DNA of 64,000 nt from a virus (taxonomy: Duplodnaviria; Heunggongvirae; Uroviricota; Caudoviricetes). Below the pieces are notes generated by a model. That model was not told where the DNA came from. It searched no databases and saw nothing but the letters and a program-made list of their open reading frames with translations. The stretch is taken from the IMG/VR virus record IMGVR_UViG_2880389630_000005; one strand, 5' to 3'. This document shows, piece by piece, positions 4,252 to 40,718 of the stretch. Both the position numbers and the translations under genes were made by a program. The first letter of the stretch is position 1. Every line of letters begins with the position of its first letter.

Positions 4252-4329
4252 ATGAGCAGAATTATCACCACCACCGTGTATACACTGCATGAGCTATCCT
4301 CCACCGCACAGGAAAAAGCCCGCGACTGG
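4252..4329 (+). pseudogene. 5' fragment of an island gene (~205 aa when restored) disrupted by the Mu-like prophage
   Basis: ATG 4252 with RBS aaggg; frame continues exactly into 40148-40718 when the prophage and one repeat copy are removed. Confidence 0.7.
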
Positions 4330-4490
4330 TGTGGGGTAGTGATCAATTCTGGGCGGAGTTAGTGCAGCCTGGTAGAACCAGCAAGCCTTGTGTGGCGCGG
4401 GGTGTGGTGATTTAGTGTGATTCTGGGCGGATTTGTGAGAAATGACCAAAAACGCTTTTTTTGCGCTTTTTTCTGGGCGCTTTTGATCTG
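4330..4490 (+). repeat. Prophage left end with three direct copies of TTCTGGGCG (candidate transposase-binding sites)
   Basis: TTCTGGGCGG at 4347 and 4421, TTCTGGGCGC at 4471; same motif inverted at right end. Confidence 0.55.
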
Positions 4491-4640: not shown

Positions 4641-5288
4641 TTATGCTGATTTCTTGTTTACAGGCTTAGTTTCTTGCTCCGGTGTGACGGGAACGCGATC
4701 ACCTGGTGTTCCAGCACAGAAAATAGCTTTGGCGCGGCGCAAAATCTCTTTGTCATTTTCCTCATCGCCAGCTAATGCCATGCAAACAGCGTCTTTAAGC
4801 GATTGCCTGATGTTCAGGCTTTGAATGGCCTTCCTTTGTTCCTCAAGTTCGCTATCGGCTTGCTTGGTTTGCCTGGTGGGTTGCTGTAGGCGTTCCAGGA
4901 CTCCTTTGATGCCAATACAACACAGCATATCAATAAGACGCTCTCTATCTTCTGGAGTAGCTCGCCTTAGTATTTCATCGACAATACTTGTGTTTGGGCG
5001 GTTAACGTCTTCTGTAGGCACCTTTTTTTCTATTATTGGATCATGCCTGCTCTCACCGTAGACCAACCATTCCAGTGATACATTCTCTAATTTTGCTATC
5101 GTAGCGACCACATTTAGGCCGGGAGTGGTGCCTTTCTCAAAGTAGTTATTTATGGTCGAGTACGGCAACCCCCAGTCTGAGGTGGCTTTACGCAGACTCC
5201 TAGTGCCAACCAGTTGCTTGATTCTGTCCTGAATGCTTTCTTTTCTATTCTGAGAAAAGGAAAAATCATCGGCGGTTTGTTTACTCAT
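4641..5288 (-). CDS. Prophage repressor (Mu c-like position), HTH DNA-binding
   Basis: 215 aa from ATG 5288 with RBS gaggaa; divergent from ner; N-terminal HTH-like segment. Confidence 0.7.
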   Translation of the reverse strand: MSKQTADDFSFSQNRKESIQDRIKQLVGTRSLRKATSDWGLPYSTINNYFEKGTTPGLNVVATIAKLENVSLEWLVYGESRHDPIIEKKVPTEDVNRPNTSIVDEILRRATPEDRERLIDMLCCIGIKGVLERLQQPTRQTKQADSELEEQRKAIQSLNIRQSLKDAVCMALAGDEENDKEILRRAKAIFCAGTPGDRVPVTPEQETKPVNKKSA

Positions 5289-5407
5289 TTTCTTTCCTCG
5301 CAATCTATTGATTTACAATGTATTTCTGCAAAAAGACTTTCTTTTCACCAAAGAAAGAAAAGAAAGCTTGTAATTTTCTATTTGTGGATCAATACTTATA
5401 TCCGAAG

Positions 5408-5456: not shown

Positions 5457-5693
5457 ATGATGGTTAGAAATGAAGTAATGAACAAAGACTGGCACCGCGA
5501 GTACATCGTTGCCGCTGTGCACACCAAAGGTTTTACATTGCGTGAACTTTCTGAACGCGCTGGTCTAAAAAAAGACTCTTTAAAAAATGCACTGTATCGC
5601 TCATGCCCTAAATATGAACGCATCATAGCCGATGCTATTGGTGTGGAACCTGCGGAGATCTGGCCAAGCCGGTATGCCAGTAAGGCGGCTTAA
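5457..5693 (+). CDS. ner: Ner-like DNA-binding protein
   Basis: 78 aa; resembles Mu Ner (…KDWHREYI…EIWPSRY…); immediately upstream of transposase. Confidence 0.8.
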   Translation: MMVRNEVMNKDWHREYIVAAVHTKGFTLRELSERAGLKKDSLKNALYRSCPKYERIIADAIGVEPAEIWPSRYASKAA

Positions 5694-7735
5694 TGTTTTA
5701 TTCAGCCAATGAGCTGGCCGGTCTTCCTGGTTTGCCCGGTACAGTTCAGGGGGTGCGCTGGACGCTCAATCGGATCACAGAGACGCACCCGGAATGGAAG
5801 CGCAAGCGTGAAGGCACCAAAGCATTCGAGTATCACATCGACTGCCTGCCCGCTGAAGCGCAGAAAGTTTTACGTAAGCGCCTGACCCATCAGGTCCTGG
5901 AAGATACGCAACTGCCCGCCGTGGTTGAGCAGAAGGCAGTTAAAAACGTCGCCGTTCGCGATGAACTGGAGGTGATGGTCAAATGCCCGGAACTGGCATT
6001 ACGCGAAGTCCAGGCACTGACTGACAAGCAAAAGGCCATCGCTGATGCGCGGATATTGCTGGCTACTGAAGTGCATAAACTGCGCGAATACGCCGGAATG
6101 ACCAGGAAGGCCGCGTTAAAGCACATCGTTGATGGTGTGCGCATGGGGGCGTTACCTGACCGCATTATCGAAGCAGCGAATACTGCAAATGCACGTCAGG
6201 GAAAGCGAACCGGTGTCAGCACCGGCAGCCTGGATAGCTGGTACTCCAGCTGGGTGATGGCGCGCGGTGATGCCAATCAGTTACTGGCGTTACTGGCTCC
6301 CGGTCATCATAAGGGAACACCGTGGGAGCAGGTCTGGTGGTTGAGCGATTTCTTTATGTTCTATCGCTCATGGAAGCGCCCGACCGTTGAATACGCGTAT
6401 CGCGAGTTTTCAGCCTGGTGGCATGAAAAACACGCGAATGATGCGGGAATGCTGGCAGTACTGCCTTCAGTTCACGCAGTCAGACGGGTGTTAAGCAGCG
6501 TCCCGGTGATTGTTAAAGAGCGTTTCCGCTCCACCGGTTCAGCCTGGCGTTCGCTCAATCCCTTTGTGCGGCGCGACTGGAGCACATTACCGGTTAATGC
6601 GGTATGGGTCGGGGATGGTCACTGTATGAAAATGACCGCGTTTAACCCACTGACCGGCAATATTTTCCGGCCAGAAGTGACGCTGGTTATGGATGCGGGT
6701 CAACGCTTTGTTGTGGGCTGGTCACTGTCCCTGTCGGAGAACGTGATAGCCGTTGCTGATGCGTTACGTTACGGCATGGCGCAGCACGGGATACCGCTGA
6801 TTTATTACTCCGATAACGGGGGCGGCGAAAAAAACCGGGTGCTTGACGCCGATATTACCGGGATTTTGCCCCGGCTGGGTGTGGAGCATCACACGGGGAT
6901 ACCAGGTAACCCACAGGGGCGCGGGGTGATTGAAAGGCTTAACAAGGAAATTCCCCGGGATGTGGCCCTGAGTTTCCAGACGTACTGCTCAAAGGGAGCA
7001 GACAAGGAAACCGTAATGATGCAGCAACGGATTATGCAGTCAGCCATTAAGGCCACCCACAAAGGGAAAGAACTGACAAAACGGCAGGTTAAGGCGAGGG
7101 ATGAAGTCCCCACCTTTGAGCAACTGATGGCAGCCATAGAACTGGAAGTCAGACGCTATAACAACCGGCCACACAGCAGCCTTCCTCGCAAAGAGGATGG
7201 CGAGCATTACAGCCCGGCAGCGTATCGCCGGAAACTGATAAAAGAGCAGAATGTTGAAATTGATTTCTTGTCGCCGGAAGAACTGCATGAAATGTTCAGA
7301 CCGGAGGTGACGCGCAAAACATTTCGCGGGGAAATTCAGTTATTCAACAATATTTATTACTCGTATGAGCTGGCCGCAGAGCACGGGAATGAAGTCAGGG
7401 TCAGTTACGATATTCATGATGCAAACAGCGTCATTGTCCGGCGGGCTGATGGCTCTTATATCTGCGATGCCATCTGGAACGGTAACAAGGTTGATGCCTT
7501 CGCTAAACCAGTTATCGAGCAAAAACTGGAGAAACGCGTCAGAGGCCGCATTGCACGGGCCACGCAGAAAATCGAAGAGGCTAAACGCGAGCTTACCCCG
7601 GCTATTACGCAGAAGCCTGACTTTAATCTGGGATATGGACTGGAACGCCCGGAGAAAAAGGAAAAAGAAGAACTTTATTTATTCGCATCTGAACGCGAAC
7701 GCAATTTAAAGAAAAACGGCACAAACAACCGTTAA
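5693..7735 (+). CDS. Mu A-like DDE transposase
   Basis: 680 aa; start overlaps ner stop (TAATG); size and position as Mu A. Confidence 0.9.
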   Translation: MFYSANELAGLPGLPGTVQGVRWTLNRITETHPEWKRKREGTKAFEYHIDCLPAEAQKVLRKRLTHQVLEDTQLPAVVEQKAVKNVAVRDELEVMVKCPELALREVQALTDKQKAIADARILLATEVHKLREYAGMTRKAALKHIVDGVRMGALPDRIIEAANTANARQGKRTGVSTGSLDSWYSSWVMARGDANQLLALLAPGHHKGTPWEQVWWLSDFFMFYRSWKRPTVEYAYREFSAWWHEKHANDAGMLAVLPSVHAVRRVLSSVPVIVKERFRSTGSAWRSLNPFVRRDWSTLPVNAVWVGDGHCMKMTAFNPLTGNIFRPEVTLVMDAGQRFVVGWSLSLSENVIAVADALRYGMAQHGIPLIYYSDNGGGEKNRVLDADITGILPRLGVEHHTGIPGNPQGRGVIERLNKEIPRDVALSFQTYCSKGADKETVMMQQRIMQSAIKATHKGKELTKRQVKARDEVPTFEQLMAAIELEVRRYNNRPHSSLPRKEDGEHYSPAAYRRKLIKEQNVEIDFLSPEELHEMFRPEVTRKTFRGEIQLFNNIYYSYELAAEHGNEVRVSYDIHDANSVIVRRADGSYICDAIWNGNKVDAFAKPVIEQKLEKRVRGRIARATQKIEEAKRELTPAITQKPDFNLGYGLERPEKKEKEELYLFASERERNLKKNGTNNR

Positions 7736-7753: not shown

Positions 7754-8647
7754 ATGAGTTTAATTACGCAATTAAATGACGTAATGGCCCGTCGCGGCTA
7801 TACGCAGACCCACGTCGCCCGTGCCATTGGTCGTAGCAGCGCCGTTATCAGCCAGTATTTACAGGGTAAATATCAGGGCGATATGGCTGATATTGAAGAA
7901 CGCATTTCTACCTTTGTGACCCGTGAGCGGGAAAAGGAAAACAGCCGCCGTATTAAAGCAAAGTTTGTGACCACCGGTATGGCTGCCAAAGGACTGGAGG
8001 TGCTGGCCTACGCTCACCTGGAATGTGAAATCTGTGTGCTGTATGGCGCAGCAGGTCTTGGCAAAACAATGATTCTGCGTGAATACGCCGCCAGAAACCG
8101 GGATGCGCTCCTGATTGAGGCTGACCCGGGCTATACAGCCAGAACACTGCTTGAGGAGTTGTGCCGCCAGCTGGGGGTAAAGGTTCGCGGCAACATTCAC
8201 GAACTGATAGATGCCTGTGTGCGCGAACTGCGTGATTCCGGTCGTCTGCTAATGGTGGACGAGGCTGAACTGCTCCCCTATCGCGCACTGGAGGTTCTGC
8301 GCCGTCTGCATGACAAAGCGGGTATCGGGGTTGTTCTGGCGGGTATGCCTCGTCTTCTGATTAACCTCAAGGGGCGTCGTGGTGAGTTCGCCCAGTTATA
8401 CAGCCGTGTGGCGCTGGCGCTTAACCTGGGCGATACGCTGGCGCAGGAAGATTTTAACCAGATAGCCACCGGGCTGATGCCGGAAGCAGCAGAACCGGAA
8501 ATCAGCGAGGCGCTTTATACACGTTCGCTGGGTAATGCCCGCCGCCTGTTCAAACTGGCGCGTGGTGTGTACCGGATTTGTGATATCAGCGATGCGCCGG
8601 TCAGTGTGCAGGCCATTGATAAATTCGCGGAAATGTTAATTCACTGA
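7754..8647 (+). CDS. Mu B-like AAA+ transposition/target-DNA activator
   Basis: 297 aa; Walker A GAAGLGKT; follows transposase. Confidence 0.9.
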   Translation: MSLITQLNDVMARRGYTQTHVARAIGRSSAVISQYLQGKYQGDMADIEERISTFVTREREKENSRRIKAKFVTTGMAAKGLEVLAYAHLECEICVLYGAAGLGKTMILREYAARNRDALLIEADPGYTARTLLEELCRQLGVKVRGNIHELIDACVRELRDSGRLLMVDEAELLPYRALEVLRRLHDKAGIGVVLAGMPRLLINLKGRRGEFAQLYSRVALALNLGDTLAQEDFNQIATGLMPEAAEPEISEALYTRSLGNARRLFKLARGVYRICDISDAPVSVQAIDKFAEMLIH

Positions 8648-37567: not shown

Positions 37568-39945
37568 TGCAAAATCTGATGCCCCCGATAAATACACCGG
37601 ATCAATTGTTTCATGATGGTGACCCCACTCAGGGGATAGAAGGAACCATCGTAACTGCTGATTATTTAAACAATCAGCAGGGGGCAATCCGTGATTTACA
37701 GCAGGAACTCCTTAATGTTCTTGGTAGTGTACATATTCAACCTGCCCCCCAAAAAACGGATCAGCTACTTACCGCGCTTCGTGCGCTGCTGTTAAGCCGC
37801 AAGAATCCGTTTGGCGATATCAAATCGGATGGCACGGTAGAACGCGCTCTTGAAAATCTGGGGTTACAGGATGTAAAAGCTGGTTCATTGAACAATCTGT
37901 ACACTAACCATTCCCGTAGTGTCTTAATGGAATTGCCGTTATTATTCCCGGACTACGATACGGTGCTGGCTGCTCAGTCTGGTGCGGAATATATGTATCC
38001 ACAGGGATTTGTGGTGACAGGAGAAAAAATCTATCTGAGTTATACCGTTGAGCCAAAGCAGACACGGAACGTTATAGTTCAGTACACAACATCCGGCGAA
38101 TATGAGGGATATTATTATGTCGATAATGGAGGTCGTGGCGTTGTCAGCGAAGGCCTTGTGGTGACAACGGATTACGGTGGATTACGTTTGTTCATGTCAG
38201 GAGAAAATGGATTACTGAAACAGTTTTCGCTTGATGGGGCAATTTCTGGTTCAGTATTGCCGTTAATTGATGAACATGATGTCGGTGTTTACAACCAGTT
38301 CAGCTATCGTAAAAACCGCTGGGTGGTTGAACAGTCAGCGCCGGAAGTGGGAGGCCTGATCACCCGCACAGTATTTGCGGTGTATGATTTTCAGTTTCGT
38401 CGGACAGGGACATTCACATTACCGTTGCATGATTCCGGATATATCACGGAAAGCACAGACAGCTATGCAAGACGCTTCACAAAACGTCAGGGAATTGCTG
38501 TGGGAGACGATTATATTGCCTGTTCTTATGGTGGCTATTTTAATACCGGGGCATCAGCCGGATTTAACCAGTTTCAGGGGGTTAAGGTCTTTTCTCCGGA
38601 TGGAGTAAAGCAGCAGGAATCCATTCTTCATCCCCAAAAAATGATAGATGTGCTTACCAGGCAGGGTTTTACACCTTCGCGCATTGAGAACGAAGGAATT
38701 TGTATTTCTGACGACGGCGGCAGTATATATTCGCTTTATATCTTTCTGGAGCGTGGGTTACCACAGGCTTATCAGAAAGGAATTGTTCTGATGAAAGAGT
38801 TCAGTACTGGCAGAGATGCTATTGATTTTCGTCAGGCAGCCTGGTTGTACACGGGGTTTGATGTGTCTCATGCCAGTATTGGAACATTTCCCCGTAGTGC
38901 CCAGGGGTTGGTAAACCCGGTGTTGGGGACGGTATTCACATCCCTGTCTGAAATTCTGGCATATATGCGTTCTGTGAGTCAGAAATGGTTTTGTCTGCAT
39001 ACAACCACGACACCGATTAAAGATCTGAGTGGAAATGACATTCCTGCTGACAATTATGTGTTCATCAAGAATGCTAATAACCAGACATTCTATATAACGC
39101 AGGAGTCAGCTGAAGGTGGAATAAAATATAAAGCTGTCACTACAGACAGCGGAGAATATGGTTTTCAGCGACAAAGAGAGGCAATCTGGTCCAATGTTAT
39201 CACCATCGCACAAAAGAGCGATGGTGAGGATCAGTTTAATCGTATTATCGCTGCCTCGAAAAGTGGTTCGGGTAAAAATCAGGATAAAATACTGGTAGTT
39301 GACCAACAGGCATCAGAGGGGAATAACACGCTGGTAATTGGCGGTGGTTCATCTGTGTTCAGGTCAGCGACAGTGATTGATTTTGCAACGAATCAGGATG
39401 CAAATGCCACAGGAGGAGAAAAGAGATGGCGCATAGATTCATCAGGAAATCTCCGCCCTTATACAGATAATACGTATTCGATCGGTTATGCCTCATGGCG
39501 ACCCGCACAGGTTTATTCAGCTACGGGAAGTATCAGTACATCAGACCGGACTCATAAACAGGACGAAACAATTCTGTCGGATGCAGAAAAAAGGGTTGCC
39601 AGAAAGCTGCTCGGGTATATCTGTCGGTTCCGTTTCAGGGATGCAGTGTCCAGCAAAGGGAACGCAGCCAGATGGCATGTAGGAGTGATTGCTCAGGACG
39701 TACAGAAGGTCTTCTCCGAGGAAGGGCTGGACGCTTTTGATTACGGTATTTTGTGTCGTGATGAATATCCGGCGGAATATGAAGTGGTTTACGGGACTCG
39801 TATGGAGCTTGGTTCTGACGGACTCCTTACAATGGAAGAATACGATACCGGAGAGCGCAAGCTGGTCAGGGAGGCTGGTGAAATAATGTCTGTAAGGAAT
39901 GATGAGCTGCATTATTTCATGCTGGCATCGCTGTCTGGCCAGTGA
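37567..39945 (+). CDS. Tail fibre protein with C-terminal intramolecular chaperone (peptidase S74-like) domain
   Basis: 792 aa; C-terminal SDRTHKQDE...[11 protein letters not shown] matches the self-cleaving chaperone signature; last gene before prophage right end. Confidence 0.8.
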
Positions 39946-40060
39946 ATAATATTAATGTAAGGAGCGATATAAGCTCCTTACATCATGCATTTTATGCTGC
40001 GATTATGCGTTCTCCTGTTGTTTGTTGCTGAGAGTGAAACACCGGAAACATAACTAATAA

Positions 40061-40147
40061 GTTAGCGCCCAATTCTGGGCTTTTTGGCTGAGATCTCCCC
40101 GCCCAGAATTGGGCGCTAATTAGCCCAGAAAAAAACGCGAAGTTACA
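40061..40147 (+). repeat. Prophage right end: 19-bp inverted repeat TTAGCGCCCAATTCTGGGC/GCCCAGAATTGGGCGCTAA plus inverted TTCTGGGC motif copies
   Basis: Perfect inverted repeat at 40061-40080 and 40101-40119; CCCAGAA at 40123-40130. Confidence 0.55.
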
Positions 40148-40718
40148 CTGGTACCGTCAGCATCATGCTGACAGCAACTGGTATGAAAACGTGTATGAGG
40201 ACTTCAGGGCGGTCTGTGGCATTTTCGGAATTGACCTCCGCCAGCGCGTTTTCCGGCTCAGCAACGGCAGGTTTATGGAAGAGGCGTGCATCTGGTTCAG
40301 CGGATTCTGCAGCCAGGGGGACGGAGCCTGTTTTGAAGGACGCTGGCACTGGCAGCCAGCAACAGCCAGAAGGCTCCGGGAGTATGCCACACAGGACCAT
40401 GAACTCCATCGTATCGCGGATGCCCTGCAGGCGGTGCAGAAACGTAACTTCTGGCAACTGCAGGCTGAAATCCACCACCGGGGACGTTACTGCCATCCGT
40501 ACAGCATGGATATCACTGTTACCCGGAACAGTCCGACTGGTCAGGCTATGACAGCCGATGCGGAAGCCGCTGTCAGCGAAGCCCTGCGCGACCTGGCCTT
40601 CTGGTTGTACCGTCAGCTGGAAAACGAGTACGACAGGCTGACCTCTGATGCCGCTGTGGATGAGGCCCTTCTCATCAACGAATACACCTTCACCGAAGCC
40701 GGTCTGCGCGCCGGCTGA
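40148..40718 (+). pseudogene. 3' fragment of the island gene disrupted by the Mu-like prophage
   Basis: Frame of 40191-40718 extends upstream to the junction and joins 4252-4329 in frame; stop TGA at 40716-40718. Confidence 0.7.

Follow-up and report, generated by a model that had tools for sequence, protein, structure and literature searches.

The stretch of DNA analyzed here, a single strand of 64,000 nucleotides from an IMG/VR virus record (hereafter the window), includes a Mu-like transposable prophage of 35,818 bp. It extends on the plus strand from 4330 to 40147, between the ends 5′-TGTGGGGTAG...GAAGTTACA-3′, and its boundaries were defined from end matches. The early region, just inside the left end, follows the order repressor, ner, A, B: a repressor with a CI-type HTH (4641–5303, minus strand; Pfam Phage_CI_repr), a Ner-like regulator with an HTH_35 domain (5457–5693, plus strand; Pfam), a 680 aa transposase A of the MuA family (5693–7735, plus strand; Pfam and a match of its AF2 model to 4FCY) and a 297 aa MuB-like AAA+ ATPase (7754–8647, plus strand; Pfam AAA_22 and TniB). 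In near-identical copies from other E. coli genomes, the annotation includes Mor, GemA-like, Mu gpT head, contractile tail and baseplate genes, and this Mu-like gene content, together with the four left-end genes, identifies the element as a Mu-like transposable prophage. A MuA-fold DDE transposase and an AAA+ ATPase adjoining the left end constitute a Mu-type transposition module. The lineage is present in many E. coli genomes, among them that of the reference EPEC strain E2348/69.

At the other extremity, a stem of 11 bp closing a loop of 7 nt and followed by a T-rich tail (39955–39983) comes directly after the last late gene and is likely to be the late-operon terminator, separate from the end sites described below. 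Over its 3′-terminal part (39848–40052), the tail-fibre gene is 100% identical to tail-fibre genes of many ST131 and other genomes which do not carry the right end of this prophage, and the complete right end was common to only five genomes in a strict megablast search; the terminus of the late region thus appears recombinationally mosaic. Some genomes, including NZ_CP124372.1 (AVS0151), show two to four right-end matches each, which suggests that several copies of this or of related transposable prophages can reside in one chromosome.

Among E. coli complete genomes, more than 20 unrelated loci have left-end matches that start at 4330, and right-end matches end at 40147. Since right ends diverge, the strict megablast search retrieved few of them and blastn at a relaxed E-value was needed, which gave right-end matches in roughly 650 E. 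coli genomes. In the window, the two junctions share a 6-bp repeat, ACTGGT (4325–4330 and 40147–40152), and in matches to empty sites the two flanks overlap by exactly these six bases, so that the length of the target duplication is ambiguous from this insertion alone. A preliminary description of the window had pointed out this terminal ambiguity, and had also noted that a 4-bp duplication (CTGG) would place TG and CA at the two ends where a 5-bp duplication would leave only one of them. Both junctions were therefore read in 12 independent simple insertions, this window included. All 12 show a perfect 4-bp direct repeat around TGTGGGG...GTTACA: CTGG in the window (4326–4329 and 40148–40151), CATT in S13, CACT in E2348/69, CGCT in Ec55, ACTT in SCAID, ATTC in CFS3292, AGTA in STEC346, GAGA in tcmA_3, GACA in 160-11H1, AAAG in STEC313, ATTG in OkiPb01701 and AATG in M8.

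These insertions also speak to the possibility of a canonical Mu-type duplication of 5 bp (ACTGG or CTGGT in the window), with TG or CA at one end only. Six of them (the window, E2348/69, SCAID, STEC346, tcmA_3 and STEC313) are compatible with 5 bp, the target base preceding the 4-bp repeat happening to be A in each. However, a 5-bp duplication with a right end in ...GTTAC needs an A before the left repeat, and the base found there is C in S13 and Ec55, T in CFS3292 and G in 160-11H1, OkiPb01701 and M8, although GTTAC is followed by A in every case; these six insertions refute it. The other 5-bp register, with the T included in the duplication, fits only 4 of the 12, and the sister elements of the Sp18 type (see below) also duplicate 4 bp. 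A 5-bp duplication is therefore highly improbable. The element ends in 5′-TG...CA-3′ and duplicates 4 bp of target, which we regard as practically certain because all 12 insertions fit 4 bp and half of them exclude 5 bp. The terminal nucleotides are the same from one insertion to another, and the 4-bp option of the preliminary description is the one borne out.

Removal of positions 4330–40151 (the element and one copy of the repeat) restores a continuous host ORF of 214 aa which has no Pfam match. The interrupted gene (4252–4329 joined to 40152 onward) lies downstream of RadC-like and DUF987 (YeeT-like) genes in a CP4-44-type island, and one RefSeq record names its product 'antitoxin of toxin-antitoxin stability system'. 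Elsewhere the targets include eutC, ycgB, ypdF, mhpT, fliH, yfcC, melR-melA and the yjfJ-yjfK spacer, as well as an Rhs/PAAR gene, a TonB-dependent receptor gene and a phage capsid gene. Many unrelated chromosomal sites are thus hit, and the choice of target is near-random. As to target preference, an A precedes the duplication in 6 of the 12 insertions (p ~0.05 by our own binomial estimate), which is too weak to claim one. All the prophages compared are integrated copies, and their many different locations suggest that the prophage is active. A thirteenth copy, in F163 (L008, NZ_OY754349.1), was left out of the 12 as rearranged. No target duplication flanks this copy, which ends on the right in ACT where ACA is usual and sits between a 3′-truncated phnJ and a 5′-truncated ABC-ATPase gene. 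This suggests an adjacent deletion or rearrangement and a terminal point change which would immobilise the copy.

Both ends of the prophage carry repeats of a common motif. The exact 9-mer TTCTGGGCG occurs four times on the two strands of the window, at 4347, 4421 and 4471 (plus strand) and at 40100–40108 (minus strand), none of them more than 150 bp from an end of the prophage. Two copies with one mismatch, TTCTGGGCT, at 40122–40130 (minus strand) and 40073–40081 (plus strand), bring the set to six; the latter runs opposite to the other two copies at the right end and forms with its partner at 40100–40118 a perfect 19-nt inverted repeat. The three direct copies at the left end are therefore just as the preliminary description had reported them. 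Its inverted motif at 40100–40130 is likewise correctly placed, with an exact copy at 40100 and, at 40122–40130, the one-mismatch variant rather than the motif itself; the copy at 40073–40081 had been missed.

Each repeat is part of a longer putative transposase site. On the left these are L1 (4337–4355, plus strand, TAGTGATCAATTCTGGGCG), with a core starting 18 nt from the left terminus, L2 (4411–4429, plus strand), with its core at 92 and an upstream half-site TAG instead of GCG, and L3 (4461–4479, plus strand, TTGCGCTTTTTTCTGGGCG), with its core at 142. On the right they are R1 (40122–40140, minus strand, core TTCTGGGCT), whose core lies 18 nt from the right terminus as does that of L1 from the left, R2 (40100–40118, minus strand), with its core at 40, that is 22 bp from R1, and R3 (40063–40081, plus strand, core TTCTGGGCT), with its core at 68 and inverted relative to R1 and R2. 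Three sites per end are thus asymmetrically spaced, by 74 and 50 bp on the left and by 22 and 27 bp on the right with R3 inverted. This arrangement is found in 13 of 13 E. coli variants, with core starts at 18, 92 and 142/143 from the left terminus and at 18, 40 and 67/68 (inverted) from the right, and the right-end sites persist there even where the sequence between them is strongly diverged. A consensus of about 19 bp, T-N-GCG-N5-TTCTGGGC(G/T), was derived from 31 distinct site sequences. All 31 copies agree in the T at −10, in the G at −6 and at positions 1, 2, 5, 6 and 7 of the TTCTGGGC core; core positions 3, 4 and 8 each vary in a single copy, the spacer varies freely and the GCG half is missing from L2. 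The E. coli variants show hardly any change in the L1-L2 spacer (4356–4410), and a GCAAGCCTTG / GAAGCCTTG block within it is kept in Citrobacter, Yersinia and Salmonella relatives. In Mu, this spacer is bound by HU, and the block could be a host-factor site.

Relatives of the element which also start with TGTGGGG occur in other genera, and their transposases are 45–87% identical to that of the window: 87% in E. albertii, 85% in Citrobacter, 77% in Yersinia, 72% and 60% in Salmonella, 71% in Edwardsiella, 63% in a metagenomic contig and ~45% in Pantoea and Sodalis. Their own cores, found by a de novo search for triplets, lie at 18, 89–92 and 141–143 and read TTCTGGA(C/T). These relatives therefore have in common with the element the terminus, the site positions, the TTCTGG core and the early gene order. 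In contrast, among the left ends compared, the relatives have GAC or GAT as the 3′ half of the core, where the present element has GGCG. The exact 9-mer TTCTGGGCG is absent upstream of transposases that are 62% identical or less and is specific to one E. coli sublineage. By sequence comparison it is a derived variant of a family-wide TTCTGGR core, seen only in the E. coli copies examined. Conservation of the repeats among relatives, on which the preliminary description had made its reading depend, thus holds for the positions of the sites and for the family core TTCTGGR, but the exact 9-mer is restricted to that sublineage.

In Mu, each end carries three non-equivalent MuA sites, the termini are CA and the stagger is 5 bp (PMC3562280; PMC3145075). 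Measured on Mu itself, the CGAAA cores occupy left-end positions 22, 127 and 167 and right-end positions 22, 44 and 56, the last of these inverted. In both phages the first site is equidistant from the two termini (18 here, 22 in Mu), the step from R1 to R2 is 22 bp, R3 is inverted and L2-L3 form a distant pair. They also share TG...CA termini, the asymmetric arrangement of three sites per end, the early order repressor, ner, A, B, a MuA-fold transposase and near-random insertion. The resemblance to L1-L3/R1-R3 of Mu with a different consensus, which the preliminary description had recognized, is therefore supported by fixed distances in 13 variants which parallel the Mu positions. The differences from Mu are the site consensus, T-N-GCG-N5-TTCTGGGC(G/T) without a CGAAA-type core, an L1-L2 distance of 74 bp instead of 105 bp, a duplication of 4 bp instead of 5 bp and a transposase only 21% identical to MuA over the catalytic core, without similarity at the DNA level. 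A megablast search with the early region gave no match among the 50,697 phage records of INPHARED. Because of this and of the low identity to MuA, the element is judged not to be Mu and appears to represent a distinct lineage, as had been proposed. It lacks the CGAAA-core consensus, the 5-bp duplication and the similarity to Mu which are characteristic of the genus Muvirus in the strict sense (Mu, D108, SfMu).

Pfam recognizes HTH_Tnp_Mu_1, rve (weakly) and Mu-transpos_C in the 680 aa transposase and does not detect the Mu Iβ domain (HTH_Tnp_Mu_2). Identity to MuA reaches 34% over the first 67 residues. The AlphaFold2 model is of moderate confidence (mean pLDDT 72.7, pTM 0.40); among PDB structures it matches that of the Mu transpososome, 4FCY, best (E 1.8e-14, ~560–580 columns), in an alignment which spans Iβ-Iγ-core-IIIα and hence essentially the whole of the crystallised MuA; TnsB of Tn7 and of CAST come next. 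From this model, the end-binding domain would be the helical region between the Iα-like domain and the DDE core. Residues 141–220 are the most diverged internal segment with respect to Salmonella relatives of 70–74% identity (59–70% identical, compared to 86–88% for the core), a divergence that would fit a DNA-recognition region and is only suggestive. The Iα-like N-terminal domain (residues 1–75, 5693–5917) is 53–68% identical in three relatives whose transposases are 85–91% identical overall (P0003, P0030, P0037). The pattern resembles a mosaic exchange in which the enhancer/operator-binding domain was replaced along with the immunity region, and a similar difference separates Mu from D108. 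The nearest transposases of sequenced phages, 40–49% identical, are those of Pseudomonas VW-6B, Klebsiella ST405-OXA48phi1.1 and Yersinia Tongde, along with those of Sp18-like elements, Mannheimia 3927AP2 and SuMu.

A more distant set of elements, from Klebsiella, Raoultella, Limnobaculum and Pluralibacter and including Sp18 of the EHEC strain Sakai, carries triplets of TTTGATAC with the first site at 18. The termini of the Sp18 type, defined from independent insertions, are TGTAACC...GCGCTATA, and the duplications are TAAA in Sakai and AGAG in Mu_JNE122137 (LC727895), a record in which the depositors had labelled two 4-bp features as 'duplication due to insertion'. Elements of the Sp18 type resemble the one studied here in a transposase ~45% identical, a 4-bp duplication, a first site at 18 from both ends and a 22-bp step from R1 to R2. 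They differ in the site core (TTTGATAC), in the left spacing (95/52 in Sp18 itself and 71/42 in the Klebsiella-type relatives), in a direct orientation of R3 and in a right terminus TA, within the terminal sequence TGTAACC...CTATA. Sp18 was accordingly rejected as a member of the same phage type on the basis of its termini TGTAACC...CTATA and of its TTTGATAC motif. Reading the Sp18 junction as a 5-bp duplication, CCAGG, was also rejected once independent insertions gave 4 bp. Ends of the form 5′-TG...TA-3′, with TA and not CA, are found in two independent Sp18-type insertions (L010:471/L011:625 in Sakai and L064:1094-40430 in LC727895). Among other transposable phages, the D3112-like and B3-like phages of Pseudomonas have TG...CA ends, as here; the D3112-like transposase is ~30% identical to that of the element, and B3 differs by its Tn552-type transposase. 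The D3112-like phage Ab30 inserts with a five-base offset and a 5-bp duplication (PMC5977238). The duplication is 5 bp for Mu and 6 bp for B3, and a '5/6 bp duplication' has been taken as a recognisable scar (PMC8705779). Full-text searches of the literature turned up no report of Mu-like phages duplicating 4 bp: such a duplication is unmentioned in the paper linked to LC727895, and the SuMu and PluMu papers are silent on duplication length. The 4-bp scar is therefore on record at the annotation level for the sister Sp18 lineage, and no description of it was found for the present one.

What the six repeats represent can be examined in the light of these observations. One-mismatch matches to the motif are frequent in the window (33 compared to 17 expected), as might be anticipated if the repeats had arisen by chance in G+C-neutral sequence. 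However, the four exact copies compare with 0.57 expected, none of 100 shuffled sequences reaches four, all are terminal and the positions of the sites are kept in relatives from other genera, so that chance is hardly credible. The location of the left-end repeats, in non-coding DNA beside the repressor gene, would suit a regulatory function, whether as operators bound by the repressor or Ner, as promoter elements or as sites for host factors. Yet the motif recurs at the opposite extremity of the prophage, 35 kb away from any early promoter, and has there an inverted orientation and an identical distance of 18 nt from the terminus. The expected place for operators, the repressor-ner intergenic region, contains no copy. 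Nor does the motif fit the IHF consensus, WATCAANNNNTTR. We consider a regulatory role of this kind improbable.

The perfect inverted repeat of R3 and R2 could also be taken for an RNA or DNA hairpin, for example the late-operon terminator, rather than for a pair of protein sites. The segment 40062–40119 has a predicted fold of −38.7 kcal/mol (z-score −6.6), and a weak terminator-like pattern is present inside R3. In E2348/69 and STEC346, however, bases outside the core differ between the two arms without compensation (GCGTCCAA versus GCGCACAA) and the predicted fold changes. A canonical hairpin with a T-run already follows the last gene, and R3 is in direct orientation in the Sp18 type. This interpretation appears no more probable than the regulatory one.

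We favor the view that the six repeats are the end-recognition sites of the Mu-like prophage and that its transposase very probably binds them. Several observations lead to this: the enrichment of the motif at the termini, its fixed positions, the parallel with Mu and the conservation in relatives; the equal distance of L1 and R1 from their own termini; the confinement of exact copies to the ends, the next one-mismatch match after 4479 being at 6668, within the transposase gene, together with the lack of copies between repressor and ner; the 4-bp TG...CA ends of 12 of 12 insertions; and a transposase identified as MuA-like by Pfam, by the match to 4FCY and by the adjoining AAA+ ATPase. In transposition, six protomers of the 680 aa protein would bind the bipartite sites through the region between the Iα-like domain and the DDE core. 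The bound transposase would then pair the two ends in a synapse and nick next to the terminal CA. With the help of the MuB-like ATPase, the 3′ ends would be joined to target phosphates 4 bp apart, and repair of this stagger would generate the 4-bp duplication, CTGG in the window. The data are therefore best read as an end architecture of the Mu type whose site consensus differs from that of Mu and whose stagger is 4 bp, binding of the sites by the transposase being deduced from their arrangement.

For this lineage of Mu-like prophages of E. coli, the boundaries are now defined to the nucleotide, together with the site consensus and the length of the scar, 4 bp. Procedures for delimiting such prophages which expect a repeat of 5 or 6 bp (PMC8705779) will mis-call the ends by one base, and the ambiguity encountered in the window is an example of this. 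The general picture of Mu-type transposition is unchanged. The association of a Mu end architecture with a 4-bp stagger offers a convenient comparison for how transpososome geometry sets the spacing of strand transfer, and a second, orthogonal Mu-type pair of ends and transposase could serve in mini-transposon work. It is probable that an entire clade of MuA-family elements of Enterobacterales, comprising the TGTGGGG/TTCTGG lineage and the Sp18 type, uses a 4-bp stagger where Mu uses 5 bp, with TA at one end in the Sp18 branch. If this is true, it would correct the '5/6 bp scar' rule for the delimitation of transposable prophages and, with the 5-bp Mu/D3112-like phages and the 6-bp B3, would supply a natural series for the study of stagger length and of the choice of terminal dinucleotide in DDE transpososomes.
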